Shown here: one piece after another, positions 9,464 through 33,220 of the stretch
Position numbering within the stretch: position 1 is the stretch's first letter
Layout: every line of letters starts with the position of its first letter
Source of the DNA: Candidatus Levybacteria bacterium RIFCSPLOWO2_12_FULL_41_12
Lineage (GTDB): Bacteria; Patescibacteriota; Microgenomatia; Levybacterales; UBA12049
Assembly (NCBI GenBank): GCA_001784155.1
Contig: MFPL01000007.1
Location: 10,101-74,100, forward strand
Reading direction: 5' to 3'
DNA length: 64,000 bases
Notes under the pieces: generated by a model
What the model saw: only the letters and a program-made list of their open reading frames with translations
The model's database searches: none
Told to the model about the DNA's origin: nothing
Program-made: the position numbers and the translations under genes

Positions 9464-10486
9464 TTAATTGTTTCTTCTAATTTTATTTCCTGGGTCATTA
9501 AATATACTTTTTACTACGTATTTTGGTCTGCCTTTAACTTCCTCAAAAATCTTCCCCATATATTCTCCCAGAATGCTTATTCCCAAGAGTTGAAGCGCTC
9601 CGAAGAAGAGAATTGCTATAAGAATTGAAGTGACGCCGTGCGGAATGTCAGGGTTAATAAGCTTAAGAATTACAAGAACTATGATTGCAAGGGACGCGAA
9701 GACAAATATTACAGAAGAAAGAAGAGCTAGGAATTGAAGCGGAACGTAGGAGAAGGAAAAAATTCCCTTTGTAGCCCAGTTAAGATTTTTTAGTATACTG
9801 TTGGTTGTCTTGCCGAACATTCTTTCAGGTCTAGTGTAAGGAACACCAGTCTGCTTAAAGCCGACCCATGCGCGAAGTCCTCTAAGAAATCTGTCTCTTT
9901 CTGGAAACTCTTTTAGTGCGTCTACTACTCTTCTGTCTATTAGAGAAAAGTCCCCTGCATCTAAGGGAATCTTTATGTAAGAAAGCTTATGAAATACACG
10001 ATAAAACGACTTGTATAAGAAAACCATGTAAAGTGGCGCCTCACGTTTTACACGTACACCATACACGATGTCAAATCCTTTTAGCCATTTGGGATAGAAT
10101 TTCTCGATAATTTCCGGAGGGTCCTGAAGATCTCCATCGAGCAAAACTACTGCGTCTCCTGTCGCGATATCCATGCCGCTTGTGAAGGCCATTTGCGAGC
10201 TGAAGTTTCTTGAGTGATTTACCCCGATTACATGCTTATCCTGTCTACAAAGACTTGCTAATACACTTTCAGTATTATCCAGACTACCATCGTTGACGAA
10301 AATAATTTCATAATTCAGCCCGATTTTTTTGAAAATTTTAACAAGCCTTTTGTGCATTATGGGGATTGCACGTTCGTCGCCGTAGCATGCAATAATTGCA
10401 GAAATCTTTTTCCTTTTAAGTCTGTTTTTCATATACAATAAGATTTGTTCCACAGTAGATTCTATTGAGATATGGGATATTTTCAA
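9464..10486 (-). CDS. GT2 polyprenyl-phosphate glycosyltransferase (DPM1/ArnC/GtrB-like) with two C-terminal TM helices
   Basis: ISAIIACYGDE...FVNDGSLDNTESV...LLDGDLQDPPE motifs. C-terminal ILIAILFFGALQLLGISILGEY membrane anchor typical of GtrB/ArnC. True start may be the internal MKNRLKRKK (about 10429), which reduces the overlap with the upstream gene. Confidence 0.75.
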   Translation of the reverse strand: MKISHISIESTVEQILLYMKNRLKRKKISAIIACYGDERAIPIMHKRLVKIFKKIGLNYEIIFVNDGSLDNTESVLASLCRQDKHVIGVNHSRNFSSQMAFTSGMDIATGDAVVLLDGDLQDPPEIIEKFYPKWLKGFDIVYGVRVKREAPLYMVFLYKSFYRVFHKLSYIKIPLDAGDFSLIDRRVVDALKEFPERDRFLRGLRAWVGFKQTGVPYTRPERMFGKTTNSILKNLNWATKGIFSFSYVPLQFLALLSSVIFVFASLAIIVLVILKLINPDIPHGVTSILIAILFFGALQLLGISILGEYMGKIFEEVKGRPKYVVKSIFNDPGNKIRRNN

Positions 10487-11171
10487 GGATTGGCTCGACA
10501 GCTTTTATTAGCTTTGCCGGCCTTTCGGGGAAAAAGAAAGGAACTATTCCGAAGAAGCACTGTTTCCTTACCTGAAACCCGTTTCTTTCAAACCATCTAT
10601 TCAGAGTGGGCGGCCAGTATGATTTTTCCTCGTGTTCCCTGTGATAAGTTGAAACCTTTTCCATGATTTTCATAATCGGGCTGTATCCATTGGGTTCTGC
10701 TACGATAATTACATCAGCAAGCTTGCTAATCGCGTTTATTCCTTTTTGAGGTTGATAAAAATGGTGCAGAACTCCTCTTACTACAGCAACATCAAATTTT
10801 TCTTTAATTTTTTTATCAACTACATAAACACTTGAGACCAAAAAATTTATTCTTTTGGCGTCTTTTTTACGAATCTTTTTTTTTGCAATCCTCACCCCTT
10901 CTTCAGCATAGTCAAAACCTACAATTTTTTTTGGGCTTAACTTCTGATACAGCTCGAAGGTATAGGTTCCGTCTCCGGATCCTACATCAAGTATCTTCAG
11001 CGGTTTCTTAAATTTTTGTGATCTTATTGCTTTTAAAATACCATCCGATTGTTTTTTTGACGCTACAACAGCAGAATAAATATTTTGGTCTGTATAAGCG
11101 TAACCACCAAGCATCTTGACGTCTCTATTAAATTTTGAAATATTTTTTTCTCTATCTCTTCTTCTCTTCAT
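10416..11171 (-). CDS. Class I SAM-dependent methyltransferase
   Basis: ILDVGSGDGTYTFEL motif I. VVRGVLHHF. Confidence 0.7.
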   Translation of the reverse strand: MKRRRDREKNISKFNRDVKMLGGYAYTDQNIYSAVVASKKQSDGILKAIRSQKFKKPLKILDVGSGDGTYTFELYQKLSPKKIVGFDYAEEGVRIAKKKIRKKDAKRINFLVSSVYVVDKKIKEKFDVAVVRGVLHHFYQPQKGINAISKLADVIIVAEPNGYSPIMKIMEKVSTYHREHEEKSYWPPTLNRWFERNGFQVRKQCFFGIVPFFFPERPAKLIKAVEPILENIPYLNRIYCGTNLIVYEKQT

Positions 11172-11172: not shown

Positions 11173-11700
11173 TTATCGTCTTAGGTTTACATACCAAGGC
11201 TTATTATTCTTTACCATCTCTCTTACGATGCTTGGAATTTCCTTAACGTCATCTGGCCATCTTGCTTCAATATTACCAAGAATTTTTAAAACTTGCTTGT
11301 CTTCTAAAGGCCAATGGGATATCCCATCATGCGAATAGTCTTTGTCTCTTCCGGAACCGACTAATCTCACGGGAATCTTTTCATAATTTATATAATTACG
11401 TATCGTTTCAAAAGGTCTGTATAGAAGAAACGTTGTAATCGAATAGGTGAATGGAATTTTCCCTTCAAGAGCCAGTCCTATTGCTATTCCCATCATAGCT
11501 TGTTCCGATGCGCCTACGTTAAGGTACCTATCCGGGAAGTCATCACGAATCCTATCCCACATACCGTAGCCAAGATCTCCCGTCACGACCCAAATGTTCT
11601 TATTTTTTAACATTTGAGAATGCAGGGAAGCTGCGAATGCTGCTCTTTGATTATCTTTAATAGTCATGTAATAATTCCATCGCGAGAGTGAAATCCTCAT
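11173..11700 (-). CDS. Transketolase C-terminal-section subunit, truncated (Pyr domain only, 175 aa)
   Basis: GASEQAMMGIAIGLALEGKIPFTYSITTFLLYRPFE (pyrimidine-binding domain). Ends about 130 aa short of the plus-strand paralog at 25143..26093. The next gene on the same strand starts immediately, leaving no room for the missing C-terminal domain. Confidence 0.65.
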   Translation of the reverse strand: MRISLSRWNYYMTIKDNQRAAFAASLHSQMLKNKNIWVVTGDLGYGMWDRIRDDFPDRYLNVGASEQAMMGIAIGLALEGKIPFTYSITTFLLYRPFETIRNYINYEKIPVRLVGSGRDKDYSHDGISHWPLEDKQVLKILGNIEARWPDDVKEIPSIVREMVKNNKPWYVNLRR

Positions 11701-12385
11701 TGCTCATTATGTAATAATGCGCCCCCTGATCTTTCAAGAAGGGGAATTGATTTACTTTCGTTTCAGCAAAAATTATATTTTCTTTTTTGCTTTTCAAAGC
11801 CTTAACTATTTGCTGAGTGTCATGCCCGTTAATTCTTTTTATATCGGGAGCAAATCCTTTTAGCCTTTTATATAAGGAGTCTTTGGGGATCGGAGCGTAT
11901 GCTCCCCAGCCGTTAACGTTAATCAAAATCTTCAAATTATTAATTTTCTGATCTCGAATAATTCTTAGTGATTCCCATATACTTCCTTCGGTTGATTCTC
12001 CGTCAGAGATCATGCAATATACATTTTTACCTCTATTTGAAAGCGCAATGCCCAAAGCTATTGGAAGCCCTTGTCCTAGACTTCCCGTTGATACATCAAC
12101 TCCAACTGCTGGATTCCGATCAGGATGCACATGCAGCTTTTCGGATTCGCCTGCTTTTAATAAGCCGTATTTTTCTAAAATAGTGTACAGCGCTATTCCG
12201 GCATGACCATTTGATAAAATAAATTTTTCGTTTTTTGATTTGATACTATAAACTGCATCTATCAGATCAACACTACTCAAACATGATCCCAAGTGAGATA
12301 AATTCAGTTTGTGAGAGATTATAAGAATTCTTCTTCTGATATCTCTTTGTCCTTTAGAAAGTTTTTTTAAGTCGTATTTATTCAT
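11657..12385 (-). CDS. Transketolase N-terminal-section subunit (TPP-binding)
   Basis: GHAGIALYTILEKYG, STGSLGQGLPIALGIA, ISDGESTEGSIWE motifs. Confidence 0.75.
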   Translation of the reverse strand: MNKYDLKKLSKGQRDIRRRILIISHKLNLSHLGSCLSSVDLIDAVYSIKSKNEKFILSNGHAGIALYTILEKYGLLKAGESEKLHVHPDRNPAVGVDVSTGSLGQGLPIALGIALSNRGKNVYCMISDGESTEGSIWESLRIIRDQKINNLKILINVNGWGAYAPIPKDSLYKRLKGFAPDIKRINGHDTQQIVKALKSKKENIIFAETKVNQFPFLKDQGAHYYIMSNEDFTLAMELLHDY

Positions 12386-13331
12386 CCGTCAATCTATTCT
12401 GAACGAGCCAATTATAAGTTTTGCTTAGTCCTTTTTCAATCGAGTATTTTGGTTTCCAATTCAACATTTTTTTAGCTTTCGTTATGTTTGCAATCCAATG
12501 GGGATTATCCCACATTCTTTTCTCAAATCCTCCCTTGATCACTTTGGTTTTTTGGCCTGTCATCTTAAAAAGAGTTTTTACAATCTCATCGTTTGTGTAT
12601 TCATGTCCGGTACCGGCATTAATTATTTCACCCGATAGCTTGCTTGATTTTTTTAACGCAGCAACATAAATATCTATGAGGTCGTCAATAAATATAAAGT
12701 CACGTCTTTGCTTGCCGGGGGTAAGCATTATCGGACGTTTCGCAATCAGTGCATGCATAATTGTCGGAATAAATCTGTCTTTTTGCTCATATGGTCCATA
12801 TACGGAGAAAGGTCTAATGGTAACGATGGGTTTTTTATATTGGTACGAAAAAGCCTGGCATAAAAGCGTCTGGGAGGCTTTGGCTGCTGCATAAAAACTT
12901 ATCGGTTCTAAAATATCAGCCTCTTTCATTGGCTTGGGCTTGAGTCCATATTCTGAGGAAGACCCCGTGTTAACAAAAATTTTATAATCTACGTCAATAG
13001 TTGCATAGAGTAATTCTAATGTCCCGTTTACGGATGTTGTGATAATTTGTTCTGCATCTTCTTGATTTCTGTACGAACCATAAGTAGCCAAATGAAATAT
13101 AGCCGTTGGGGATATTTTTTCCATTAACTTCTTCAAAGACTTTTTAGTAGGTGGAGCTGCGTGAAGCGTTATATTTTTTTTTATTTCTTTAAGTCTCCAG
13201 TTGTCTGAGGATTTTCTATGTATAACATGAACTTCATATCCCAGCTTTACAAGACGGCGTGTTAAATTAGCTCCAATAAAGCCTCCTCCTCCTGTGATGA
13301 CAATTCTTTTACTCGATGAGCCTGCCCTCAT
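12378..13331 (-). CDS. NAD-dependent sugar epimerase/dehydratase (SDR, extended family)
   Basis: RIVITGGGGFIGANL Rossmann motif. YAAAK catalytic YxxxK. Confidence 0.75.
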   Translation of the reverse strand: MRAGSSSKRIVITGGGGFIGANLTRRLVKLGYEVHVIHRKSSDNWRLKEIKKNITLHAAPPTKKSLKKLMEKISPTAIFHLATYGSYRNQEDAEQIITTSVNGTLELLYATIDVDYKIFVNTGSSSEYGLKPKPMKEADILEPISFYAAAKASQTLLCQAFSYQYKKPIVTIRPFSVYGPYEQKDRFIPTIMHALIAKRPIMLTPGKQRRDFIFIDDLIDIYVAALKKSSKLSGEIINAGTGHEYTNDEIVKTLFKMTGQKTKVIKGGFEKRMWDNPHWIANITKAKKMLNWKPKYSIEKGLSKTYNWLVQNRLTDE

Positions 13332-13381
13332 TTCGCTACATTATAGTTTATATGGTAAAATCAAAGCAAATCATCATCCCG

Positions 13382-15979
13382 ATGAAGAAAATTAATTTTT
13401 TATTCTTGCTCGTTATACTCGCAGTCGTTGTTTTATTTTCCTTGGGAAAAACCCTGGACTACTATTTCTTCACTGACGATTACGCATTTTTGTATTATCT
13501 CGGAAACAATCTTGAATTTGGATGGCCATACAACTCAGTCCTATCTATATTCAGCCCTATATATAAGCTTTTCGGAACCAATGCTCAGCCTTATTTTACC
13601 TTAGCTGTAGTAACTTATTTTTTTGCTTCAGTAAGCGTTTTCTTTTTTGCCAAAGCTTTAACAAAGAACTTACTGGTTTCCTCAGTAGCCTCGGTTATTT
13701 TTGCAACCGGCTATATTGGGCTAGATCAATTTAGCATGATCGCTGTTTCGATAATTAACAACTTGAATGTTATTAATGTCAGTATTACTTTGATACTTTT
13801 AATTTATTGGATCGAAACAAGGAAGCTCAGATACTATTTCTTAACTTTTTTTATGTTTTGGTTTAGTCTGCTTCTTTTTCCACACAGAGCATATCCTTTG
13901 GTTTTATTTCTGCCTTCTCTGGAATTAGTACTTAGTTTTAAACCGCGAAAACTCAAAAATATGCTCAAGCAAGTAGTAAGCTTATTTTTAAGATACATAC
14001 CCTTTCTCATTGTTGCAGTCCAGCGTGGAGTTTTTTCTTACGGTACACATGGCACCGAAAATGTTCATCTTTTGAATCTGGTTGAAACAGACAGCAAGAT
14101 CTACACGCTTTTTAATCCGTTATTTTTTAAAGAACTTTTTGCAGTGTTGGGTAAGTTCGTGTTATTGCCTTCATTTACGGATTTCTTTAAATACGTACCA
14201 AGTCAGGATTTTTACTCGTTTGTGGGAGTTGCCACATCTCTGCTGGCAACTGCCATGTCGATAGTTATTTACAGACGTGAAAAGCAAAAAAACGGCAGAG
14301 TGATTTTTGCTGTTTTTCTTTTGACAATACAAAGTTACGCTGGAAACATGTTTCTAAACGTAGATTTTGATGCTAACGGCCCGGTAAATAGATACTTAAC
14401 AATATCGTTTCTTTTTTATTCTATTTTGATTTCACTGTTTTTTTATTTGTTTCTTCAGATATTGTCTAAGATAAATGTTAATGCAAAAAAGAGAATTTAT
14501 GCGACCCTGGCATTTTTTCTTATTTTAGTTCTTGCATCACTCTCCAGAGATTATGAGGAACGGGTCCTTGAAGACCGAAGTCAGCCTGCGATAAAATTTT
14601 TTAAAGAATTAAAGACTTATGTCCCCGCGCTTTCAGACTCAAATTACAACATATTTTATTTTGATAGAGCGTCTTATTATCCCGTATCTTCTAGATTTGG
14701 AAATGTACTTCTCAGCGCAGCTATGGGCAACAGCGTCAACCTGGCGTTTCCTTACGGGATATCGGTTGATTCGGTTAAGATAACGGACACTTTCGAAGAT
14801 TTTCTACGTCTGGTTTTTTATACACCAGAGGGTAAAAAACCTGTTTACTATACGTTTTATAACGATGAGAGTGGTCTTAAAGACACAACAGACGATGTAT
14901 TCAGTCTTTTAGAAAGTGGTGGTTCTACCGTGATTTCAAGCGATAAGATAACATACAAAAACGAACAGGGAATTAATGCGGTAAGCATAAATACAGCGGG
15001 AGTATCAAGCCTTACCCCGCTTTCATTAAGGATGAGTCTTCAAGCAACCCCTCTTCCGCCGTCAGCGTTTGCGTTTCCTTACTCTTTTAACGCAAGCCTA
15101 ACGGAGTCTATTTCGGAGAGTGAAAAAGAGAAAATTTTTAAATATCTTCTTTCTCGAGAGAAATATTATGAAAGCGTGAGGGTTCAGGTTGAATCCATAC
15201 ACGTTGGTAAGAAGAACCCTGCGTCGTATTTAGTTGATGATAATCCTGACACCAACTGGATTTCCGATCAAAGCAGATGGGAAGTGGGTATAAAGCCTTG
15301 GATTAAAATAGATCTCTCAGAGGAGAGAAGCATAGGGACGGCTCTTTGGAGACAGTCTCCTTCCCGTGCTGTAGAAGATTTTACAATTAATGTTTCAAGT
15401 GACGGCGAGAACTGGACTGGTGTGAAGAATTTGAGCAAGCGAAACATTTACTCCGACAATAGTCTGGTGGCGGTCGATTTCAATCCCGTTAATGCCCGTT
15501 ACGTAATGCTTACGATTGTAAGTCTATCGACGGGCCCAGGTCCGAGTTTGGCGGAAATAGAACTATTAGAAGATGAATTTAATAGGATGGATATAGAAAA
15601 GGCATTCGGAATGAAAGATAACCCTTTTGCGAGTATCTCTGATGTTGAGGAAGTTGCGCAGGCGTATGCGTATTTAGAAAAAAACGCAAAGTTAAAGATA
15701 AAAACATTTACAAACAAAGACGATCCCGTGTCCAGTGCTGTGCTAGGTGAAATTCCTATCTTTCTGGATGGAGCCTATCATGATTACGAATTTCAGATAC
15801 CTCAAGGCGGGACTCATCTCAAAGAAATAAGACTTGAAGCCAATTTTCCCGCAAGTTTTAATGTTAGTCGGGTGCTCATAGAAAATCTGTCCAAGGAAAA
15901 AGTTCTTGAGGAAACCCGAAAAAAGTGTCTCGAGTTTACAGGGATAGATTCCTGGAGAAATCCTTTCGATTGTAGCTAG
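13382..15979 (+). CDS. Polytopic GT-C-like membrane glycosyltransferase with a C-terminal F5/8 type C (discoidin) domain. Paralog of 3990..6476
   Basis: Start moved to the internal ATG (MKKINFLFLL) so it does not overlap the divergent gene. TDDYAFLYY loop motif followed by many TM helices. C-terminal LVDDNPDTNWISDQSRWEVGIKPWIKIDLSEERSIGTALWRQS...FTINVSSDGENW discoidin signature. Confidence 0.6.
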   Translation: MKKINFLFLLVILAVVVLFSLGKTLDYYFFTDDYAFLYYLGNNLEFGWPYNSVLSIFSPIYKLFGTNAQPYFTLAVVTYFFASVSVFFFAKALTKNLLVSSVASVIFATGYIGLDQFSMIAVSIINNLNVINVSITLILLIYWIETRKLRYYFLTFFMFWFSLLLFPHRAYPLVLFLPSLELVLSFKPRKLKNMLKQVVSLFLRYIPFLIVAVQRGVFSYGTHGTENVHLLNLVETDSKIYTLFNPLFFKELFAVLGKFVLLPSFTDFFKYVPSQDFYSFVGVATSLLATAMSIVIYRREKQKNGRVIFAVFLLTIQSYAGNMFLNVDFDANGPVNRYLTISFLFYSILISLFFYLFLQILSKINVNAKKRIYATLAFFLILVLASLSRDYEERVLEDRSQPAIKFFKELKTYVPALSDSNYNIFYFDRASYYPVSSRFGNVLLSAAMGNSVNLAFPYGISVDSVKITDTFEDFLRLVFYTPEGKKPVYYTFYNDESGLKDTTDDVFSLLESGGSTVISSDKITYKNEQGINAVSINTAGVSSLTPLSLRMSLQATPLPPSAFAFPYSFNASLTESISESEKEKIFKYLLSREKYYESVRVQVESIHVGKKNPASYLVDDNPDTNWISDQSRWEVGIKPWIKIDLSEERSIGTALWRQSPSRAVEDFTINVSSDGENWTGVKNLSKRNIYSDNSLVAVDFNPVNARYVMLTIVSLSTGPGPSLAEIELLEDEFNRMDIEKAFGMKDNPFASISDVEEVAQAYAYLEKNAKLKIKTFTNKDDPVSSAVLGEIPIFLDGAYHDYEFQIPQGGTHLKEIRLEANFPASFNVSRVLIENLSKEKVLEETRKKCLEFTGIDSWRNPFDCS

Positions 15980-20852: not shown

Positions 20853-22277
20853 TTAGTTGAATTTTCTTAAAACATTTTTTCCTACTCTTCTGGCATTAGC
20901 CATTATTGTTAGGGTCGGAGATTTCGCGGGAAGTGCTTTCCATGTCGAGGAATCGCCACTGTATATTCTATTGGTTTGATGTAATTTCCCATTCTTATCC
21001 ACTGATAATAATGTAGGTACTTCTCTAAAGGGGACTCCTCCAGCGTAATGGACCGTAACGTAATCACTAACCGTTTTTAAAGGAAGTAATCCCAATGACC
21101 GCAATTGTCGCGAGATTTTATTAACCTCATTCCTATGTATTTCTAATTCCTTACGATTCTCCTTATATGATATCTCTAGAACATCTTCATCTCCTTTTTT
21201 CAGTAATCTACAAAATTTATTTTTTGATTCGAATACTGGAAATCTAATATCAGCTATCACTAGCGATGAAATAATAAATGACAATAGCATTGAGGCAATA
21301 ACCTTTGGTAGGGGAATATATTTGAGTGATTTATGTAGCACTTCGGTGTTGAACCTGTAAAGTTGGACAAAAAAAGCTACTAATCCATGATAGGTTTCGT
21401 CACTTAAAATGGCCAACTGGCCGAAATTACTTTTTTTAGAATTAGTTTTTTTTGTTAAAGTTCTAAAATTTAGGCATGCAGTCAAAAAATGGGCTTTTGT
21501 TAAGAATGTTGTTCTGTAGTCGAATAATCCTAAGCTTCTAAGTAAAATTCTCGTGGTATTAATTGAGCCAGCTGCTAGAATTAAATAATTTGCTCGATTG
21601 GTGGACATCACTGAGTTATCAATTGAAAAGCTTTGAATTTCTACATATTCAATTTTGTCCTTAACAGTATAGACTAGCTGATTTGGAATATAGGTAAAGT
21701 TTTTAAACCGTTTTAAGTCTTCTATGCTTGAGCTTGCACGATATGATATTGCGGTCGGTAGTTGATATACCGTATTTTTTAAGTTGGCCTTATTTTTAGC
21801 GGATTGCAAAATTAATCTTCCATGAGTATCAAGAGGGATTTTTAGCTTAAGATTTATAAGTTTTGCCACTTCTTGATATTCCTGCTGGATTATATCAGCT
21901 GGTAACCCAATTTTTTCAAGTTCTTCTTTTGAAAAAAAATCACAAATCCCATCCCAAATTTCGGATAGCCCACCCTTAGCTAGGCTTTGAATAATTTCAA
22001 TATCGCTTTTAATTTTTAAGAGTTGATAGGTTTTGTAAAAAACGTAACTGCTTTTTCTAAGTAAGTCATAGGCGTGACCCGCAGTAGAAGAATCAGTCTC
22101 CGAAAAATTAACCGGTTTTGAAGTCCGTTTCTTACTGTCTAATCCGCCGTCAATTATTGCGACCTGTAATCCTGCTTCGGTTAATGGGTATGCAGCATGT
22201 ACTCCTGCTGGTCCGGATCCGACTATCACAACATCAAATTGAGTATGCGAGCGATATTTATAAACTTTTTTCGTCAT
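20853..22277 (-). CDS. GMC-family FAD-dependent oxidoreductase (sugar oxidase/dehydrogenase-like)
   Basis: N-terminal DVVIVGSGPAGVHAAYPLTEAGLQVAIIDGG (FAD Rossmann). C-terminal GMC block HYAGGVPF...IYSGDSSTW....SPTLTIMANARRVGKNV. Confidence 0.65.
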   Translation of the reverse strand: MTKKVYKYRSHTQFDVVIVGSGPAGVHAAYPLTEAGLQVAIIDGGLDSKKRTSKPVNFSETDSSTAGHAYDLLRKSSYVFYKTYQLLKIKSDIEIIQSLAKGGLSEIWDGICDFFSKEELEKIGLPADIIQQEYQEVAKLINLKLKIPLDTHGRLILQSAKNKANLKNTVYQLPTAISYRASSSIEDLKRFKNFTYIPNQLVYTVKDKIEYVEIQSFSIDNSVMSTNRANYLILAAGSINTTRILLRSLGLFDYRTTFLTKAHFLTACLNFRTLTKKTNSKKSNFGQLAILSDETYHGLVAFFVQLYRFNTEVLHKSLKYIPLPKVIASMLLSFIISSLVIADIRFPVFESKNKFCRLLKKGDEDVLEISYKENRKELEIHRNEVNKISRQLRSLGLLPLKTVSDYVTVHYAGGVPFREVPTLLSVDKNGKLHQTNRIYSGDSSTWKALPAKSPTLTIMANARRVGKNVLRKFN

Positions 22278-23266: not shown

Positions 23267-24295
23267 ATGAAAAAATATGTAGGCATTTTCCCTTACAATG
23301 ATCACAGGTACTTATTGAATGCAGCGTTTAATAAAAATCTAAACGGTCTTGAGACTCCTATCTTCGTGACACTAAAAAAGTCTTTAAAACAGGTAAATAT
23401 AGAAGTAAATACATATGACATAGTGACAAAAGAAGAACTTTATACGTATGTATATTTTGATTTACCAAATCTTTGGAATATCAAAGCATGGGTAAAGATA
23501 ATCTCAAACAAAAACAAAAATATCCTGATCTGCAATGAGCCTCCTATTGTAATACCATTTAATTATTGGAAAATATTTCATACATTCTTTACAAAAGTTT
23601 ATACATGGAATGATAGCTTGGTAGACAACAAAAAATATTTTAAAATACTTTTGCCCAAAACAAGCTTAGGTCTTAACATCAAACCAAAAAAATTTAAAGA
23701 GAGGAAGTTTTTAGTTCTTATAAATAAAAACATACTGCCTTTTTACCCATTCAAAATTATCTTAAAGTTCGGAAAAGAGCTGTATACGGAGAGAATAAGA
23801 GCTATCGAATTTTTTGAGAAGACCATTCCAAAAAAGTTTTATCTTTACGGGCGAGATTGGAACAAACCCAAAAAGCATAATTTAACTGAGAGAATTATTG
23901 GTCCAAAGAAGTACTTGACCTACAAAGGTGAGGTCGACGATAAGATAGAATTATTATCAAGCTTTAAATACTCTATTTGCTTCGAGAACTTAACTGATAC
24001 CACAGGGTTTATTACCGAGAAAATATTTGATTGTCTAAAAGCTAGATGCGTCCCCGTCTATTGGGGTGCTACGGATATAGAAAATTATATTCCGAGGGAG
24101 TGCTTTATTGATTTTAGGCAATTCAAGGACTATGATGAGCTTCTAAAATTTTTAAATTCAATTAGCGAACAGAAGTATGCCAAGTATATAAAAAGCATTG
24201 AGAAATTGTTGTCTGATAAAAAATTTATAAACTTATGGTTTGAAGAAGCTTTTGCAGACTTTTTCATAAAGGATATTTTGGAAATAAAAAAATGA
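23267..24295 (+). CDS. GT10-family alpha-1,3/4-fucosyltransferase-like glycosyltransferase
   Basis: YKFSICFENLTDTGFITEKIFDCLKARCVPVYWG closely resembles the GT10 acceptor/GDP-Fuc motif block of Helicobacter FucT (YKFNLCFENS..GYVTEKI.D......P.YWG). Confidence 0.7.
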   Translation: MKKYVGIFPYNDHRYLLNAAFNKNLNGLETPIFVTLKKSLKQVNIEVNTYDIVTKEELYTYVYFDLPNLWNIKAWVKIISNKNKNILICNEPPIVIPFNYWKIFHTFFTKVYTWNDSLVDNKKYFKILLPKTSLGLNIKPKKFKERKFLVLINKNILPFYPFKIILKFGKELYTERIRAIEFFEKTIPKKFYLYGRDWNKPKKHNLTERIIGPKKYLTYKGEVDDKIELLSSFKYSICFENLTDTTGFITEKIFDCLKARCVPVYWGATDIENYIPRECFIDFRQFKDYDELLKFLNSISEQKYAKYIKSIEKLLSDKKFINLWFEEAFADFFIKDILEIKK

Positions 24296-25146
24296 TAAAA
24301 AATAATCTACCTTTAAGCCTGGAGTTAAAGGCAGCGGAAACAAGAGAAGAAATTTTAGAAATGATAGTAAGTGCCCGTGGAACCCACATTGCGAGTGCGT
24401 TTTCAATAGTAGATTTGGTGGTTTATTTATACAATCATGTTTTAAGAATAAATCCCAAAAAACCGAATGATCCTAAAAGAGATAAGTTTGTCTTAAGTAA
24501 AGGACATGGATGCGCAGCTTTGTATGTTGTTTTGGCAAATCTTGGCTTTTTTCCAAAGAGTGAGCTTGGGAAATACTGCACGAGAGAGGGTATTTTGGGT
24601 GGACACCCCGATAGCACAAGAATACCGGGGGTAGAAACCTCGACAGGTTCTTTGGGTCATGGTTTTCCTGTGGCCGTAGGATTTGCGTTGGCCAGTAAGA
24701 TTAACAAAAGTAATTCTAAGGTTTATTGTATAGTCGGTGATGGTGAATGCAATGAAGGGTCGGTTTGGGAAGCGGCACAGGTAGCTCCGCACCATAAGTT
24801 AGATAATCTAACTGTAATAGTTGATGACAACAAACTTATGATCTCAGGTTTCGCTAAGGATATTCTAAACCCTTTATCTTTAGCGGATAAATTCAGGATA
24901 TTTGGTTGGAATGTTATTGAAATCAATGGTCACAATTTTAAGGAAATAATAACTGCATTTAATGCCAAAACGAAAAATTCTAAGCCTACTGCCATAATCG
25001 CAAATACAATTAAAGGCAAAGGAGTGTCTTTTATGGAAAATGAAAAAGAATGGTACAGTAGACTTCCCAACGAAGAAGAGCTTAAGCTCGCGTTGGATGA
25101 GTTAGATACAAAAATCAAAAAGCTTAAGGGGAGGCTTAAGATATGA
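24292..25146 (+). CDS. Transketolase N-terminal-section subunit (TPP-binding)
   Basis: SKGHGCAALYVVLANLGFF, GHPD....GVETSTGSLGHGFPVAVGFA, VGDGECNEGSVWEA. Confidence 0.8.
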   Translation: MIKNNLPLSLELKAAETREEILEMIVSARGTHIASAFSIVDLVVYLYNHVLRINPKKPNDPKRDKFVLSKGHGCAALYVVLANLGFFPKSELGKYCTREGILGGHPDSTRIPGVETSTGSLGHGFPVAVGFALASKINKSNSKVYCIVGDGECNEGSVWEAAQVAPHHKLDNLTVIVDDNKLMISGFAKDILNPLSLADKFRIFGWNVIEINGHNFKEIITAFNAKTKNSKPTAIIANTIKGKGVSFMENEKEWYSRLPNEEELKLALDELDTKIKKLKGRLKI

Positions 25147-26093
25147 GAGATTCTTTCATAAGCTCGATATACAAAGTAACAAAAAAGGATAAAAATGTTT
25201 TATGTATTGTAGGAGATATTGGAGCATTTCTTCTAAGGAATTATATTAAAGATTTTCCAAACAATTATTTTAATTTGGGAGTCGCAGAGGCAAATATGGT
25301 CGGGGTTGCATCGGGACTTGCGATGTCTGGGAAAATTCCATTCGTTTACACCATTACCCCTTTTATTACGGCAAGGCCATACGAGCAAATTAAAGTAGAT
25401 GTATGCTATAACAACGCGAATGTAAAGCTTGTGGGTGTGGGGAGCGGTGCATCTTATGGGACGATGGGGTCAACCCACCATTCATTAGACGATTTAGCTC
25501 TAATGAGTACACTGCCCAATATGACGGTCATTTCTCCATCGGATCCTCTGGAGGTAGAAGAAGCAGTATTTGCCGCGGCAAAACACGTGGGACCCGTGTA
25601 TATAAGACTTACCTTAAAGTCTAAACCCTTAATTTATAAAAGGGAAGATTTTAAGATAGGAAAGGCAAGAGTAGTTAGAAACGGAAAAGATGTGGCAGTC
25701 ATTGCTACGGGGGATATGGTCGAAGTTGCCGTGGATGCTGCAAGCATCCTGGAAAAGGAAAATATAAGCTGTCAGATAATCAATATGCATACGATAAAGC
25801 CCATAGATGAACGACTTATTGGGGATTTGTCGAAAAAATATAAGGTAATAATTTCCATAGAAGAACATAGTGTTATGGGAGGGTTGGGCAGTGCAATATC
25901 TTCCGTTTTGGCACAAATTCCTGATAATAAAGCACTTTTTAAAGCAATGGGGTTTCGGGACGAGTTCGTGAAAATTTACGCTAGCGATAAACATGAGATA
26001 TTTAACGCTTATGGTTTATCGGAAAAACATTTAGCTAATGAAGTTCTCTCTTTGTACATGTATGCTAAGTCCAATAATACGAGAAGACATTAA
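25143..26093 (+). CDS. Transketolase C-terminal-section subunit (full length: Pyr and C-terminal domains)
   Basis: GVAEANMVGVASGLAMSGKIPFVYTITPFITARPYEQI. 316 aa with the C-terminal domain present. ATGA overlap with the N-subunit gene. Confidence 0.8.
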   Translation: MRDSFISSIYKVTKKDKNVLCIVGDIGAFLLRNYIKDFPNNYFNLGVAEANMVGVASGLAMSGKIPFVYTITPFITARPYEQIKVDVCYNNANVKLVGVGSGASYGTMGSTHHSLDDLALMSTLPNMTVISPSDPLEVEEAVFAAAKHVGPVYIRLTLKSKPLIYKREDFKIGKARVVRNGKDVAVIATGDMVEVAVDAASILEKENISCQIINMHTIKPIDERLIGDLSKKYKVIISIEEHSVMGGLGSAISSVLAQIPDNKALFKAMGFRDEFVKIYASDKHEIFNAYGLSEKHLANEVLSLYMYAKSNNTRRH

Positions 26094-27117
26094 AGACGTA
26101 GTTAATAGGCTGGGGAAAGATGCAGACCGCTTATCGGGTAAAACTGTTCTGATAACAGGAGCCTCAGGCTTAATTGGAGGATATTTAGTTGATACGCTAG
26201 TCTATCTTAATGAGAATAGATTGCTCAAGTCCTGTAAGGCAATAGCTCTTCAAAAAAGTAAAGTTAAAAAAAATAGTAGGTTGGGACATTTATTGAATAA
26301 CCGAAATGTTAAACTTGTTTCCCACGACGCGTCCGCTCCTTATAAAAGTAATCAGAAGATAGATTACGTTATTCACGCTGCAGGAGTGTCAGCACCTGCA
26401 GCTTTTCTAAAAGACCCCTTGGGCACTATAGATGTAAATGTGTCTGGCGTTCGATGGATTCTAGAATATGCGAGGAAAAATGAAGTAAAAAGCATTCTTT
26501 ATATGAGTAGTGGCGAAATCTATGGAAATCCAACCCTGGAGAATATACCCACCCCTGAAACCTATAAAGGGAATGTATCTACCCTTGATCCGCGTGGATG
26601 CTATACCTCTTCAAAAAGACTGGCAGAAACCCTCTGCAGTATTTATTTCGAAAAATATAATGTACCTGTAAAAATTGCTCGTCCATTTATTGTCTATGGA
26701 CCCGGCCTTCGGTTTGACGACAAAAGGGTTATGGCAGAATTTATTAAAAACGGGTTGGAAGGTAAGCCAATAGAAATGTTAAACGCAGGACGGGATACTC
26801 GCTCATACTGCTATGTATCCGATGCAACAGTCGCATTTTTTAAAATTCTCCTCTCGTCTAAGGACGGAGAACCATTTAATGTGGCATCTGATTTGGAAGA
26901 GGTGAGTATAAAAGAATTAGCGGAATTGGTTCATAAAATTTGCAATATAAAAAAGCCAGTTAGGGTAAAAAAGAAAGGAGCGAATTTCTTAAAAGACGCT
27001 CCGAACAGAGTCTTTCCGGACATTACCAAGCTCAAAAAAACATTCGGATATGTCCCTAAGGTAGGGATAGAGAAAGGCCTCCGAAGGACAATTGAATGGA
27101 ACAGGTCTGTAATTTGA
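26038..27117 (+). CDS. NAD-dependent sugar epimerase/dehydratase (SDR)
   Basis: GKTVLITGASGLIGGYLV. YTSSKRLAE catalytic YxxxK. The true start is probably an internal Met, because the annotated ORF overlaps the upstream gene by 56 nt. Confidence 0.7.
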   Translation: MKFSLCTCMLSPIIREDIKDVVNRLGKDADRLSGKTVLITGASGLIGGYLVDTLVYLNENRLLKSCKAIALQKSKVKKNSRLGHLLNNRNVKLVSHDASAPYKSNQKIDYVIHAAGVSAPAAFLKDPLGTIDVNVSGVRWILEYARKNEVKSILYMSSGEIYGNPTLENIPTPETYKGNVSTLDPRGCYTSSKRLAETLCSIYFEKYNVPVKIARPFIVYGPGLRFDDKRVMAEFIKNGLEGKPIEMLNAGRDTRSYCYVSDATVAFFKILLSSKDGEPFNVASDLEEVSIKELAELVHKICNIKKPVRVKKKGANFLKDAPNRVFPDITKLKKTFGYVPKVGIEKGLRRTIEWNRSVI

Positions 27118-27121
27118 AAAT

Positions 27122-27841
27122 ATGGATCTAAAACGCTTTGTACTCAAATATCTCGCTCCCCCTACAGAAACAGCGAGAAACGAATGGGTGGTTAAGAAGA
27201 TTGCTAAAATCCCCAAAGGTAAAAGCATTCTTGATGTTGGAGCTGGAGAAATGCCTTATAAGACATACTGCAGGCATCTCAAATATAAAAGTCAAGACTT
27301 TGGGAAGTACACAGGCGAAAATACAAAAAGTGGTATAAAAAGCGGAAAGTACGATACTAAAAGTGTGGATATTATTTCCGATATTACTTCTATACCAGTC
27401 AGAAATAAATCATTTGACTATGTGCTCTGCACAGAGGTTTTCGAGCACATACCCGATCCTCTTCAGGCATTAAAAGAAATAAGCAGGATAAATAAATCGA
27501 CACTTATACTGACTGCTCCGTTTGCCTCCTTAACACATTTTTATCCTTATTTTTTTTACACAGGGTTTTCAGAACAGTTCTATAGAACAAATCTTCCAAG
27601 ATACGGATATAAAATCAAGGAAATATATGCGTACGGAAATTACTTTGACTTATTGGGCATGGAGCTTTTGAGACTACCTCTCATCATCTTTGACTACAAC
27701 AAGATATTTTTGATTTGTATTCTTCCCTTTTTTACGTTGACATTACCAGTGCTTATGGCCTTGAGGATTCTGGGAAAACTTTATCCTCAGTCAAATAACA
27801 TTTTTTGCTTTGGGATATGTGTTTTAGCAAAAAAATACTAA
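27122..27841 (+). CDS. Class I SAM-dependent methyltransferase with hydrophobic C-terminus
   Basis: ILDVGAGEMPY motif I. VLCTEVFEHIPDP. C-terminal membrane-like helices. Confidence 0.65.
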   Translation: MDLKRFVLKYLAPPTETARNEWVVKKIAKIPKGKSILDVGAGEMPYKTYCRHLKYKSQDFGKYTGENTKSGIKSGKYDTKSVDIISDITSIPVRNKSFDYVLCTEVFEHIPDPLQALKEISRINKSTLILTAPFASLTHFYPYFFYTGFSEQFYRTNLPRYGYKIKEIYAYGNYFDLLGMELLRLPLIIFDYNKIFLICILPFFTLTLPVLMALRILGKLYPQSNNIFCFGICVLAKKY

Positions 27842-29031
27842 GTTTCCCTTAGCGCTTTGGTGATGAGAGTATTGGTATCATAATCTTTCGAAAGTATTAG
27901 TGCATTGCTTCTATACCTTTTGTATAAAGAATCATCCGAGAGGAGTTTAATTATTTTTTTTGCTAAATCCTCAGAATCGTACTTCGTTATGAATCCAGCC
28001 TTCTTCTGTTGGATTATTCGAGCGATTGCAGGTACGTCAGTTATAACTACGGGGAGTCCGGTGCCGAGATAGAGCTTAGGTTTACCTGGATCAGTGTACC
28101 TCGTGAAGTTATCAGGATCATCTACATATGGGGCAATACCAATTGCAGACTCGCAAAGCTCTTTTTCCAAATCTTCATGCTTCTTTATAAAACCCTTAAA
28201 CTTGACGTGTTTGCTAATCTTCAATCCCCTAGCAAGTTCTTTTAATTTTTTTTCATATTCTCCTTGCCCGATTATTACAAACATTACATTTGGGATTTTT
28301 GCAATAACTCTAGGCATAGCTTCTAAAACCAATTGAACTCCTTGTTTCTCCAAAAGATAACCGGCATAAACCATTTGATTTCTTTTGATTTTACTAACTG
28401 GTAGAATTTTAATTCTTTTAAGATTAGCACCCATGGGTAAGAGTATGCTCTTAGCCATCTTTTTAGAATTAACCCTATTTCCTATTCTGGCTGAGTCCAT
28501 CTTTTTTGATAAAACCCAAATTGCATCAGCCCAGTAACAAGCAATCCGATCCAAAAAGTGATAGATCTCATTAAGAATTTTATTTTCGAATCTTTTTGGG
28601 TTGTAATCGATCGTGTAGAAAACAATCTTTTTTATTAACCCAACTTTTTTAAATGGTAAAACCGAAACAGTATTTAGGTTATCAAGTGCAATACAAAGGT
28701 CAAGCCTGGTTTTGGAAAGCGCTAAGAAATATAAAGTAAACAGTGGATCCATAATATAAAAAAGGAGTTCGGGACCTTTCACATTGGGCGTGAAATACTG
28801 CTTTATATTCTTCCCATTCTCATATATGGTTAGAGAGGATCTGCGATCCGTGGCATAGGGGAAAGGATGCTCTACGTAATAGATATTTTTAACTTTTGGC
28901 AAAAAGAAGTCTCTAATTTCCTGTGGTGGTCCTCCGCCTGACTGCGTCCTTTTGTAGAAATGGGAGAGTATGAGTACGCTTGAGTCTTTTGATAATTCCA
29001 CTGCTAGATAATAGCTAAGATCTGCTTTCAT
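27838..29031 (-). CDS. GT4 (GT-B) glycosyltransferase. Inverted paralog of 1817..2965
   Basis: YTIDYNPKRFENKILNEIYHFLDRI and APYVDDPDNFTRYTDPGKPKLYLGTGLPVVITDVP mirror the motifs of the 1817..2965 protein. Confidence 0.75.
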   Translation of the reverse strand: MKADLSYYLAVELSKDSSVLILSHFYKRTQSGGGPPQEIRDFFLPKVKNIYYVEHPFPYATDRRSSLTIYENGKNIKQYFTPNVKGPELLFYIMDPLFTLYFLALSKTRLDLCIALDNLNTVSVLPFKKVGLIKKIVFYTIDYNPKRFENKILNEIYHFLDRIACYWADAIWVLSKKMDSARIGNRVNSKKMAKSILLPMGANLKRIKILPVSKIKRNQMVYAGYLLEKQGVQLVLEAMPRVIAKIPNVMFVIIGQGEYEKKLKELARGLKISKHVKFKGFIKKHEDLEKELCESAIGIAPYVDDPDNFTRYTDPGKPKLYLGTGLPVVITDVPAIARIIQQKKAGFITKYDSEDLAKKIIKLLSDDSLYKRYRSNALILSKDYDTNTLITKALRET

Positions 29032-30034: not shown

Positions 30035-31606
30035 ATGGAAAAACAGCAAAATAAAAAGGTGGTAGTTATTTGTCTTGATGGTGCCAACTGGGATATTCTT
30101 AAACCTTGGGCAGAAAAAGGTTGGCTTCCTAATATTAATAGATTTTTAGAAAAAGGGACTTCAACTAACTTAATTACCACGCTTCCTCCCGTAACAGGGC
30201 CAGCATGGGTATCATTTGCGACAGGAAAAAATCCGGGCGCACATGGGTGTTACAACTTTGCAATTCCTACAGATAGCCTGCTAAACGTCGATCCTATAAG
30301 TACAGAAAAAATAAAAGGGAAAACGTTTTACGAAATACTGGAAAACGATGGAAAGAAGAGCATTCTTATAAACATGCCTTGTTCCTTCCCTCCAAGAATA
30401 AAAAAAGGAATTGTCCTTCCAAGTTTTCTTGCAGCTGACTCTTCGGATGTGTATCCCAGAAATATCGTTAACAAAGTACCAGAGATTAAAAATTATAGAG
30501 TGGTTACGGATTTTCTCAAACAAAGAATTGGGAAAGGGGAAGCTATGGCCAAAGATGCAAGGGAGCTTGAAGGAGACAAATTCCTAATTGCAAAAAAATT
30601 ATTTCTGAATTTTGAATGGGATTTTTTCTTTGTAATGTTTATGGCAACGGATTGGATCCAGCATAAGCGTTATAAATATTTGCTTTCCGGGAAGGATAAG
30701 AAGTCATCGGTATTTGTGCAGGCATATATTGATTTAGATAACTATATTGGATGGTTTTTAGACAATATTTCAAAAGACACAACTCTTATTCTAATTTCCG
30801 ACCATGGCTTTAAGTCTGTTTCCACATACTTTCATATAAATGTATGGTTGAGAGAAAATAGTTACCTTAAACAAAAACTTCCAAGGTTGCGTTTAAACTC
30901 ATCAATACCACTCACCCCGGACAGGATCATAAAGGGCGGGGGAAGAGTAAAGGGACTCTTTCCCAATATGGTACGCACTGGTTCTACGATTCTTATTAAT
31001 CATAATTCTTTATATCTCTTATCAGGGCATTTTGCACGGTTGATAACAAAATATATCCCGGTTGCCAAAAAAATTATACCATCTGAGTTTCTTAACGTAG
31101 GATATGAGATTGATCCACAAAATTCGGTAGCATACAGCATTTCGGGGGGAAACGTAACCGGAATTTATATAAATGACAAGGTAAGGTTTAAGGACGGACT
31201 GGTTTCAGAAGAAGAATACAATAATATTAGAAATGAAATAATTAAAAGTATGAAAAGCGCTCGTGATACAAATGGCAAAAAGATATTTAAGAATGTTTAT
31301 AAAAAAGAGAATATCTACTCCGGAGACCATCTTTTAATGGCGCCAGATATTCTTTATGAGGAAAGCGAGCACATTATCATAACAACCGTTTTATCAAGTA
31401 TAAAGTCAATCGAGAAAACTCCTGATGGCGGCTGGCACGATAGGAAAGGCATATTTGCTGCATATGGAGATAAAATTATTAGAGGTAAAACAATAAAGGA
31501 TATTTCAGTTTTAGATTTCGCGCCGACTATTCTGCATCTGTTTGGGAAAAACATTCCTCTCGATATGGAGGGAAGAATTCTCTTTGAGATATTTAAAAAT
31601 AAATGA
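30035..31606 (+). CDS. Alkaline-phosphatase-superfamily enzyme (type I phosphodiesterase/nucleotide pyrophosphatase-like), soluble
   Basis: VVVICLDGANWD.....G.LPN. TTLPPVTGPAWVSFATGKNPGAHG metal-site block. ISDHGF. No TM. Confidence 0.6.
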   Translation: MEKQQNKKVVVICLDGANWDILKPWAEKGWLPNINRFLEKGTSTNLITTLPPVTGPAWVSFATGKNPGAHGCYNFAIPTDSLLNVDPISTEKIKGKTFYEILENDGKKSILINMPCSFPPRIKKGIVLPSFLAADSSDVYPRNIVNKVPEIKNYRVVTDFLKQRIGKGEAMAKDARELEGDKFLIAKKLFLNFEWDFFFVMFMATDWIQHKRYKYLLSGKDKKSSVFVQAYIDLDNYIGWFLDNISKDTTLILISDHGFKSVSTYFHINVWLRENSYLKQKLPRLRLNSSIPLTPDRIIKGGGRVKGLFPNMVRTGSTILINHNSLYLLSGHFARLITKYIPVAKKIIPSEFLNVGYEIDPQNSVAYSISGGNVTGIYINDKVRFKDGLVSEEEYNNIRNEIIKSMKSARDTNGKKIFKNVYKKENIYSGDHLLMAPDILYEESEHIIITTVLSSIKSIEKTPDGGWHDRKGIFAAYGDKIIRGKTIKDISVLDFAPTILHLFGKNIPLDMEGRILFEIFKNK

Positions 31607-32530: not shown

Positions 32531-33220
32531 TTGAAAATAATAAAACACACCGATCTTGCAGAAAAAATAAATGAAAGCGAGAATGTGCTTAGAAAAGCAT
32601 ATGAGAAGTACGGAGATAGGATAGCAATTTTCTGGACGGGTGGAAAAGACTCTACTGTATTACTACATATGATAAGGAATATCTTTGGAAATAAAAATAA
32701 GCTAAAAGTTCTCTTTTTGGACACACAACTTGATTTTGATGAAGTTTACGAGTTTATAGAAAGGATCAAAAAAGAGTGGAGAATAAATTTAATTACGGAA
32801 AAAACTACAGATAAGATGATGAAAAAATATAACTCTTTGAAAACGAAAAAGGAGAGGGTAGAGCTGGCAAGTATTTTTAAAATAATTCTTCTTAAGGAAG
32901 CCGTAAAAAAGCAGAAACTACCAGCTCTAGCAATAGGGATAAGGTGGGATGAGCATCCCGAACGCGCTTCGGAGAAATACTTCTCTCCCAGAGAAGGCCA
33001 TGTGAGGGTTCATCCGCTCCTTCATTTTACAGAAGAAGATATCTGGAAATACATAAAAAAGTTCCGTCTTCCTTATATTTCTTTATATGATAAAGGATAC
33101 AGGTCTTTGGGAGAGAGAGAATTCACGAAGCCCTCAACTAGAAGTGGAGGAGAAAGGTCTGGAAGGCAAAAAGAAAGAGAAGTAATAATGAAGAGATTAA
33201 GAGACCTTGGTTATTTCTAA
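32531..33220 (+). CDS. PAPS-reductase-family PP-loop protein (adenine-nucleotide alpha-hydrolase fold)
   Basis: IAIFWTGGKDSTVLLHMI PP-loop. C-terminal ERSGRQKEREVIMKRLRDLGYF. Apparent TTG start. Confidence 0.55.
   Translation: MKIIKHTDLAEKINESENVLRKAYEKYGDRIAIFWTGGKDSTVLLHMIRNIFGNKNKLKVLFLDTQLDFDEVYEFIERIKKEWRINLITEKTTDKMMKKYNSLKTKKERVELASIFKIILLKEAVKKQKLPALAIGIRWDEHPERASEKYFSPREGHVRVHPLLHFTEEDIWKYIKKFRLPYISLYDKGYRSLGEREFTKPSTRSGGERSGRQKEREVIMKRLRDLGYF

Follow-up and report, generated by a model that had tools for sequence, protein, structure and literature searches.

Two separately conserved transketolase-like modules, probably for sugar tailoring, in a glycan-biosynthesis locus of a Levybacteria genome

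In our analysis of a 64,000-nucleotide stretch of the genome of Candidatus Levybacteria bacterium RIFCSPLOWO2_12_FULL_41_12 (GenBank assembly GCA_001784155.1, contig MFPL01000007.1, positions 10,101 to 74,100 of the forward strand; hereafter the window, numbered from its first nucleotide) we asked why a single glycan-biosynthesis locus should carry two split transketolase (TK) cassettes in opposite orientation, each accompanied by a short-chain dehydrogenase/reductase (SDR) and a methyltransferase. The initial annotation had described the second cassette (B) as an inverted, rearranged duplicate of the first (A), with the TK-C subunit of A truncated, and had suggested either two different unusual sugars or a pseudo-duplicate in decay. 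What the sequences show is the gene content, synteny and residue signatures of the cassettes, the separate conservation of each family and a lack of recent common descent. We think it probable, though well short of certain, that they are two independent sugar-tailoring modules whose alpha2beta2 TK-like thiamine diphosphate (ThDP) enzymes transfer a two-carbon ketol onto nucleoside diphosphate (NDP)-keto-sugars.

All eight open reading frames (ORFs) of the two cassettes were confirmed in position and domain content. With their flanking genes they are as follows (GT, glycosyltransferase; SAM, S-adenosylmethionine):

9464..10486, minus strand: GT2_A, GtrB/ArnC/PgfS-like polyprenyl-phosphate glycosyltransferase (GtrB 5EKP 4e-77, ArnC 4e-43)
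10416..11171, minus strand: MT_A, class I SAM methyltransferase, 251 aa (Methyltransf_31 1.6e-19)
11173..11667, minus strand: PYR_A, TK beta subunit with a Pyr domain only, 164 aa (Transket_pyr only; the ORF opens at 11700)
11657..12385, minus strand: TKN_A, short PP-domain (ThDP diphosphate-binding) subunit, 242 aa (Transketolase_N 6.2e-12)
12378..13331, minus strand: SDR_A, extended SDR, GalE/Pal-like, 317 aa, first gene of module A (Pfam Epimerase 8.2e-48)
13316..15979, plus strand: large GT-C-like membrane protein with an F5/8 type C domain, divergent from SDR_A (F5_F8_type_C 1.4e-15)
23267..24295, plus strand: GT10_B, family-10 (fucosyltransferase-like) glycosyltransferase, directly upstream of TKN_B (Glyco_transf_10 8.2e-15)
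24292..25146, plus strand: TKN_B, PP-domain subunit, 284 aa (Transketolase_N 1.2e-44)
25143..26093, plus strand: TKC_B, Pyr plus TKC subunit, 316 aa (Transket_pyr and Transketolase_C)
26062..27117, plus strand: SDR_B, UXS-like (UDP-glucuronate decarboxylase-like) SDR (human UXS1 2B69 1.5e-44; the ORF opens at 26038)
27122..27841, plus strand: MT_B, SAM methyltransferase with a hydrophobic C-terminus, 239 aa (Methyltransf_11 2.8e-10)
27838..29031, minus strand: GT4 glycosyltransferase, convergent on module B (Glycos_transf_1 4.1e-25)

Between the two cassettes blastn returned only chance-level words, the longest exact word being 15 nt, and identity at third codon positions was 31-35%, which at 37% GC is what base composition alone would give, so that synonymous sites are saturated. 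By pairwise BLASTP the TK-N subunits were 32% identical (E 3e-35), the Pyr domains 36% (E 2e-35) and the two SDRs 27% (E 3e-20), with no significant similarity between MT_A and MT_B (E 0.064); the paralogy that had been proposed thus stood for the TK and SDR pairs and fell for the methyltransferases, and the shared domain content, though real, is a likeness at the superfamily level. Over 158 columns of the Pyr domain, cassette A matched the B family and the other non-canonical TKs at 35% identity each and canonical split TKs at 32%. For cassette B the figures were 34% against the A family, 41% against canonical TKs and 49% against the remaining non-canonical TKs. The best in-window paralog of SDR_A was the SDR at 18333-19274 (220 bits, against 77 bits for SDR_B), and that of SDR_B was the SDR at 6473-7447. 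The cassettes are therefore no closer to each other than to unrelated TKs and SDRs, and neither their TKs, nor their SDRs, nor their methyltransferases are mutual closest relatives. With orthologues elsewhere that are 65-82% identical, against 32-36% for A versus B, the cassettes are two old lineages. A dN/dS ratio between the cassettes, which had been suggested as a check, would be meaningless with saturated synonymous sites at 30-37% amino-acid identity, and cassettes without shared DNA identity cannot act as substrates for the large inversions that had been envisaged.

The short subunit of cassette A proved to be of normal length for a conserved family. The true start of PYR_A is probably the ATG at 11667, since homologue alignments begin at residue twelve of the ORF. 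When we searched with the 175-residue ORF we obtained 2,993 homologues, the best 120 of which were nearly all 158-172 residues long, carried Transket_pyr only and were 64-99% identical; a further, exhaustive search through 1.8 billion cluster representatives recovered 38 distinct 50%-identity clusters at E <= 1e-30, and 55 of the best 150 representatives were 150-185 residues long. All members of this Pyr-only family lack the TKC domain, and no decayed TKC remnant follows PYR_A, because the methyltransferase gene opens 2 nt downstream. The family ends in a nearly invariant Arg within the motif Y-I-N-L-K-R, which aligns without gaps to Y-I-R-L-G-R of the Carboxydothermus enzyme, the Arg being equivalent to human R474 (E. 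coli R520). When PYR_A was compared with its orthologues, the proportion of nonsynonymous differences (pN) was 0.09-0.19 and that of synonymous differences (pS) at least 0.76; pS is saturated even at this distance, so that pN can be said only to lie much below pS, which indicates purifying selection on the Pyr-only gene rather than decay. A local inverted duplication with a decaying, truncated copy A is therefore scarcely credible to us: the cassettes do hold the same four kinds of domain in opposite orientation, with significantly similar TK and SDR pairs, but they share no DNA identity and no reciprocal closest relatives, the short subunit is a constrained family spread over 70 species, and, as described below, both modules already stand in the same arrangement in a genome about 70-80% identical at the protein level.

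To see what accompanies the Pyr-only subunit we took one genome per species, collected neighbours within 6 kb and clustered them without bias. The subunit occurred in 70 species, mostly Microgenomates, plus Omnitrophota, Elusimicrobia, Ratteibacteria and others, and it was adjoined by TK-N in 68 of the 70 loci (loci are numbered with the prefix L). A GtrB-like GT2 was present in 55 (64-76% identical where directly downstream of the Pyr subunit), and an SDR_A orthologue in 53. A zinc-ribbon SAM methyltransferase of about 300 residues (N-terminal CxxC...CxxC), absent from the window, was found in 48 of the 70, lying in loci L011-L080 about 1.6-2.6 kb upstream of the Pyr-only gene (e.g., L013:7406-8296); the MT_A type stood next to the module in just 10 of the 70, and in the window MT_A, which is unrelated to the zinc-ribbon enzyme, occupies the slot after PYR_A. 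On these neighbour counts, the core of module A is SDR, (methyltransferase), TK-alpha, TK-beta and GtrB-like GT2. No kinase, SIS isomerase (GmhA) or dedicated nucleotidyltransferase was seen among the conserved neighbours or in the Pfam annotation of the window. Residues 26-329 of the 340 in GT2_A align to residues 26-330 of the 341-residue GtrB 5EKP, including the C-terminal membrane region; its best NCBIfam match was PgfS (239 bits, equivalog cutoff 500), with ArnC at 155 bits (cutoff 529), both below cutoff. In the window and its closest relatives the core stands head to head with the large GT-C-like membrane protein, orthologues of which occupy the same position in L004 (78% identity) and L161 (flagged PMT_2), and this protein is a probable user of the lipid-linked sugar.

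Locus L004, a groundwater contig (ENA ERZ4903055 k141_1566577), showed a mosaic of nucleotide identity to window positions 6622-16780. From 6.6 to 11.4 kb identity was mostly 81-98%, with a dip to 74% at 9.8-10.2 kb, and at 14.6-15.8 kb it was 84-90%. In between, at 11.4-14.6 kb, it was only 65-73%; this interval takes in TKN_A, SDR_A, the 5' part of PYR_A and the half of the GT-C-like gene that encodes its N-terminus. Against L004, MT_A had a pS of 0.20 and the neighbouring PYR_A one of 0.76. The mosaic and the pS contrast suggest recombination breakpoints flanking the TK/SDR core of module A. In the same survey, several loci (L012, L016, L026-L028, L048, L059, L072 and others) matched Microgenomates contigs in gene order and sequence, the gene content of L012 being the same as that of the Woesebacteria locus L001, and their public records of metagenome-assembled genomes bear the titles 'uncultured Gammaproteobacteria', 'Pseudomonadales', 'Planctomycetales' and 'archaeon'; these titles are probably unreliable as taxonomic labels.

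Module B was conserved on its own terms. The order GT10, TK-N, TK-C, SDR was found in 12 family loci wherever the flanks were long enough, with GT10 upstream in every locus having enough upstream sequence (L007, L008, L009, L081, L082, L084, L086, L088) and an SDR after the TK in all 11 with room for one (67-73% identical in 7, 34-36% in 4). An MT_B orthologue (74-76%) held the same position in L083 and L084 and lay nearby in L081 and L082, and an orthologue of the convergent GT4 (56-65%) held the same position in L007, L008, L081, L082, L084 and L088. TKC_B matches a Candidatus Levybacteria bacterium RIFCSPLOWO2_02_FULL_40 protein at 100% identity, which places the source within the Microgenomates (Patescibacteria), and the orthologues of TKC_B are 65-79% identical; with 316 residues, against 307 in most orthologues, it has a C-terminal extension of 9 residues. 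The ORFs of TKC_B and SDR_B share 56 nt (26038-26093), and the start of SDR_B is probably the second ATG, at 26062, which matches the orthologous length of 351 residues. Over residues 26-348 SDR_B aligned to human UXS1 with SSGE/STSE, YTSSK/YDEGK and TR/TR in register, so that Ser/Thr-x-Glu, YxxxK and Arg are conserved; against the curated equivalog PRK11908 it scored below threshold (76 bits, cutoff 294). Both modules were also found together in a related genome, a pairing that the initial annotation had proposed to look for: in GCA_964481995.1 (CAYZUO010000001.1) they lie about 13 kb apart, divergent, with the same genes between them and proteins 70-80% identical to those of the window, so the pairing predates the split of these two species.

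We aligned both families to human TK and to Carboxydothermus split-TK segments obtained from PDB searches. The equivalents of D155, G156, E157, N185, E366 and F392 (the GDG...N motif, the activating Glu and the stacking Phe) were conserved in both, with Ser at position G154 in family A, and both kept the equivalents of H37, H77, H110 and H473; in the TKN_A family human H37, H77, H110, D155, N185 and H258 were each matched in at least 66 of 68 sequences. All five of the E. coli residues H26, H66, H100, H261 and H473 were kept in family A (at least 66 of 68 sequences) and four of them in family B, in which 9 of 11 members have Tyr in place of H261/H258. The donor-site residues of E. coli TK are H66, H100, G114 and H473 (PMC7661550), and equivalents of all of them are retained here. 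Since H100 is replaced in DXS, which uses pyruvate, its retention favours a hydroxylated two-carbon donor.

Neither family has the complete canonical set for binding the substrate phosphate. In E. coli TK this phosphate is bound by R358, S385, H461 and R520, and D469 reads the acceptor C2-OH. Across 80 metagenomic split-TK loci we found 35 proteins with the canonical signature R-S-E-F-H-D-H-R (R-S-H-D-R in 35 of 35), and none of these 35 had SDR or GT neighbours; split TKs with Gly at H416 and non-Asp at D424 often stood between an SDR_A-like gene and a GtrB-like GT2. Family B keeps R318, with S345 replaced by Ala or Phe (depending on the alignment), H416 by Gly, D424 by Met and R474 by Leu. 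In family A, H416 is replaced by Gly and S345 by Tyr or Gly, but D424, both arginines and H258 are kept; among the nearest full-length relatives of PYR_A, Gly at H416 was seen in 63 of 65. Both TKs thus belong to a broad non-canonical, glycan-associated TK clade, in different subfamilies. The three-domain PP-Pyr-TKC architecture is complete in B, and A lacks TKC. TK models far outscored those for the E1 component of pyruvate dehydrogenase (PDH) and its relatives (Transketolase_N 1.2e-44 versus E1_dh 1.2e-08; NF004559 1.2e-63 versus PDH E1 beta 6.2e-22).

A profile search of the non-canonical clade returned one cultured organism, the Firmicute Fonticella tunisiensis (L163; GCA_004364155.1, SOAZ01000009.1 24077-41003), in which the genes are ordered RfbF, RfbG, SDR_A-like, TK-alpha, TK-beta, RfbH. 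The flanking assignments scored above cutoff (glucose-1-phosphate cytidylyltransferase 450 bits, cutoff 300; CDP-glucose 4,6-dehydratase 485, cutoff 278; RfbH 616, cutoff 423); the SDR is 44.6% identical to SDR_A, and the TK-beta signature is G-S-K. CDP-4-keto-3,6-dideoxyglucose, made by RfbF/RfbG/RfbH, is the substrate to which YerE gives the two-carbon branch of yersiniose, and AviB1/AviB2 and YerE are both precedents for ThDP-dependent sugar branching (PMC4753412). Module B has its closest precedent in everninomicin, where EvdS6, a UXS-like enzyme, provides UDP-4-keto-xylose and the eurekanate branch has been proposed to come from a heterodimeric ThDP enzyme resembling E1 (PMC10338323). The Fonticella operon is followed by a GT10-containing protein, a GDP-mannose 4,6-dehydratase, a GDP-fucose-synthase-like SDR and a second RfbH-like aminotransferase.

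The glycan locus of the window extends over about 1 to 59 kb and contains many GT2, GT4, GT10 and GT-C-like transferases, at least five SAM methyltransferases, six extended SDRs, RfbF-, RfbG-, RfbH-, RmlC- and RmlD-like genes, a priming Bac_transf gene and DUF5667 proteins. Three adjoining genes between the modules form a candidate supplier of an NDP-4-keto-6-deoxyhexose substrate:

16010-16789, plus strand: RfbF-like cytidylyltransferase (NCBIfam G1P_cyt_trans 260 bits, cutoff 300)
16750-17733, plus strand: RfbG-like 4,6-dehydratase (NCBIfam CDP_4_6_dhtase 209 bits, cutoff 278)
17714-18265, plus strand: RmlC-type 3,5-epimerase (NCBIfam rmlC 183 bits, cutoff 156)

Genes of this RfbF/RfbG/RmlC type also flank module A in L004 and L161. 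CDP-sugar-type genes of the locus lie at 26-946, 943-1824 and 16010-19274: the RfbH-like gene at 26-946 is partial, cut by the window start and aligning to positions 128-438 of 440, the RmlD-like reductase (943-1824) follows it directly, and the SDR closest to SDR_A closes the 16010-19274 set.

On the reading we favour, the alpha2beta2 enzymes keep their cofactor and donor-side machinery and have a remodelled acceptor/phosphate pocket. Hydroxypyruvate, a ketose or another ketol donor would provide the two-carbon ketol carried by dihydroxyethyl-ThDP, the two-carbon unit would be added to the carbonyl of an NDP-keto-sugar provided by the neighbouring SDR enzymes, and the resulting C-branched or chain-extended sugar would then be reduced and/or methylated. 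The product of module A would be loaded onto polyprenyl phosphate by the GtrB-like GT2 and transferred outside the membrane by the adjacent GT-C-like protein; in module B the acceptor would be a UDP-4-keto-pentose-type intermediate, and the product would be used by GT10 and GT4. For both modules we infer the substrates, the direction of reaction and the products from sequence and gene context. The idea that two ThDP modules mean two different unusual sugars, hinted at in the initial annotation, gains support from the separate SDR and GT of each module and from the remodelled pockets, the sugars themselves being suggested by context. More tentatively, as a possibility to which we give rather less than even credence, these enzymes may be a third, transketolase-type ThDP lineage forming C-C bonds on activated sugars, beside YerE (acetolactate-synthase type) and AviB1/AviB2 (E1 type). 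Among its members would be a minimal heterotetramer of PP and Pyr subunits, lacking TKC, that would feed polyprenyl-phosphate glycosylation and yield previously undescribed C-glycolyl- or dihydroxyethyl-branched or extended surface sugars in Patescibacteria of the candidate phyla radiation (CPR) and in other uncultured phyla, with two such sugars made from this locus.

Known systems match parts of this proposal. ChTK of Carboxydothermus hydrogenoformans (PDB 6YAJ/6YAK; PMC7661550) is likewise a two-gene alpha/beta, alpha2beta2 ThDP enzyme, gave the best match among solved structures for each of the four TK subunits and has the ThDP-binding and donor-site residues in common with them; unlike either module it combines a TKC domain with the canonical pocket residues S, H, D and R, whereas in cassette B the pocket residues are replaced and cassette A lacks TKC and the S345 and H416 equivalents. 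The orthosomycin and paulomycin sugar enzymes AviB1/AviB2 and EvdU5/EvdS3, the latter with EvdS6, resemble module B in setting a heteromeric ThDP enzyme beside a UXS-like SDR and methyltransferases, and the EvdS6-type proposal of two-carbon addition to an NDP-4-keto-pentose follows the same logic as ours. Those enzymes, however, belong to the pyruvate dehydrogenase E1 family and take an acetyl equivalent from pyruvate, whereas the enzymes here are of the TK family and keep the His that reads the C1 hydroxyl, which makes a glycolaldehyde-type unit more likely than acetyl; the Avi and Evd pathways also serve antibiotics in actinomycetes, as opposed to cell-envelope glycans in CPR bacteria. YerE acts on CDP-3,6-dideoxy-4-keto-glucose (from RfbF/RfbG/RfbH), and the Fonticella member of the clade lies in just such an operon; unlike the window TKs, YerE is a single-chain ThDP flavoprotein of the acetolactate-synthase type, from another branch of the ThDP superfamily, and uses pyruvate. 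With GT2_A beside an SDR and a GT-C-like protein, module A matches the three-component systems ArnA/ArnC/ArnT or PgfE/PgfS/PgfM. We know of no GtrB/ArnC/PgfS-type system that includes a ThDP enzyme. In the wps-2 exopolysaccharide cluster of the cultured bacterium Actinoplanes missouriensis (PMC13390465) a methyltransferase, TK-N and TK-C stand together as in the modules, a likeness drawn from gene descriptions, the three genes being known by domain annotation only.

Several observations weigh against two-carbon addition to NDP-keto-sugars. The Tyr at H258/H261 in most module B members could mean a different chemistry, and module A keeps both phosphate arginines and the Asp, so that its substrate may be a small sugar phosphate. 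SDR_A is epimerase-like rather than a 4,6-dehydratase: its best solved relatives are Pal 6BWL (9.4e-35), GalE-type 4-epimerases and a UDP-GlcA 4-epimerase, and across 54 orthologues the motifs GSSSEYG and YxxxK were kept and no TDE dehydratase motif was seen. For module B, release of a 4-keto intermediate by a UXS-like SDR is not predictable from sequence or structure (PMC10338323), and no UDP-glucose dehydrogenase is encoded in the window. The neighbour-joining tree is a distance tree with neither outgroup nor support values, and in the literature we found no characterized TK-family enzyme in an O-antigen, capsule or nucleotide-sugar pathway, only domain-level mentions.

Cassette B might alternatively be a housekeeping split transketolase of the pentose-phosphate pathway that stands in a glycan locus by chance. 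Its PP, Pyr and TKC domains are all present, its match to the Carboxydothermus split TK is strong (2.9e-76 for TKN_B against the N chain, 6YAK, and 8.1e-56), its identity to canonical TKs (41%) exceeds that to cassette A, and on NF004559 (a fused model with cutoff 488, by which split proteins are scored unfairly) its halves reach 280 + 215 bits, compared with 123 + 66 bits for those of A. We nevertheless consider this improbable, because the residues that the B family has lost or replaced (S345, H416, D424, R474 and H258) are kept in all 35 canonical split TKs, which themselves lack SDR or GT neighbours, whereas the synteny of cassette B with GT10 and the UXS-like SDR is fixed across 12 loci with overlapping start and stop codons. 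The modules, A above all, might instead make an unusual sugar phosphate precursor, such as a heptulose or octulose phosphate, that is activated elsewhere. The PYR_A family does keep the equivalents of R318/R358, D424/D469 and R474/R520, which in canonical TK contact the substrate phosphate and the acceptor C2-OH, and module A keeps H258; but the genes conserved beside it encode an SDR of the NDP-sugar type, a methyltransferase and a GtrB-like transferase, which requires an NDP-sugar as donor, the S345 and H416 equivalents are lost, and the absence of a kinase, a GmhA/SIS isomerase and a dedicated nucleotidyltransferase noted above tells against it as well, so we regard it as unlikely. A more specific form, supply of sedoheptulose-7-phosphate to GmhA as a heptose precursor, was rejected, with no SIS isomerase, kinase or phosphatase of that route in the window or among conserved neighbours.

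The TK-like enzymes might also run in the cleavage direction, removing a two-carbon ketol from a keto-sugar, or catalyze a decarboxylation, so that the chain is shortened or rearranged instead of branched. TK chemistry is reversible, the lost phosphate-binding residues would suit non-phosphorylated ketol substrates, and the carbonyl of a UDP-4-keto-pentose is flanked by a hydroxylated carbon. Split TK-like enzymes acting on ketols other than sugar phosphates also exist, the steroid desmolase DesAB of Clostridium scindens reportedly cleaving the side chain of cortisol. On the other side, the ThDP-dependent reactions known from NDP-sugar biosynthesis (YerE, AviB1/B2, EvdU5/S3) are carboligations, and the neighbour of the Fonticella TK, RfbH, makes the compound to which branches are classically added. 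We give cleavage a small but appreciable chance, and it is a variant of the sugar-tailoring reading rather than a contradiction of it.

Elsewhere in the locus we noted two large multi-pass membrane proteins (3990-6476 and 13316-15979; 828 and 887 residues), each with an F5/8 type C (discoidin) domain, whose homologues are flagged PMT_2 or AftD-like and which may be GT-C glycosyltransferases with a built-in carbohydrate-binding domain. Between the modules a 474-residue protein (20853-22277), beside a DUF5667 protein, had as its sole match an N-terminal FAD/NAD(P)-binding Pyr_redox_2 segment (residues 14-47). A type I phosphodiesterase/nucleotide pyrophosphatase family protein and a PAPS-reductase-domain protein (30035-31606 and 32531-33220), bordered by ORFs that have no Pfam match (31603-32481 and 33221-34900), hint at a sulfur- or phosphate-based glycan modification. 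The 174-residue ORF at 41663-42187 holds only an N-terminal Glyco_transf_4 domain and is followed, after a gap of about 430 bp, by a complete GT4 gene (42621-43745); it may be a GT4 fragment or pseudogene.

The chemistry proposed here is best classed as a variant of already known ThDP-dependent sugar branching. The kinds of TK are separated by a residue signature (Gly at H416/H461, non-Asp or retained Asp at D424/D469, loss of S345/S385), the Fonticella tunisiensis operon offers a tractable experimental entry to the whole enzyme clade, and a natural TK without a TKC domain is of interest for biocatalysis. If our reading is correct, thousands of glycan-locus genes annotated as 'transketolase' or 'hypothetical' would be sugar-tailoring rather than pentose-phosphate enzymes, metabolic reconstructions of CPR bacteria that count TK as evidence for the pentose-phosphate pathway would be affected, and these genes would signal new branched or higher-carbon surface sugars in uncultured bacteria.

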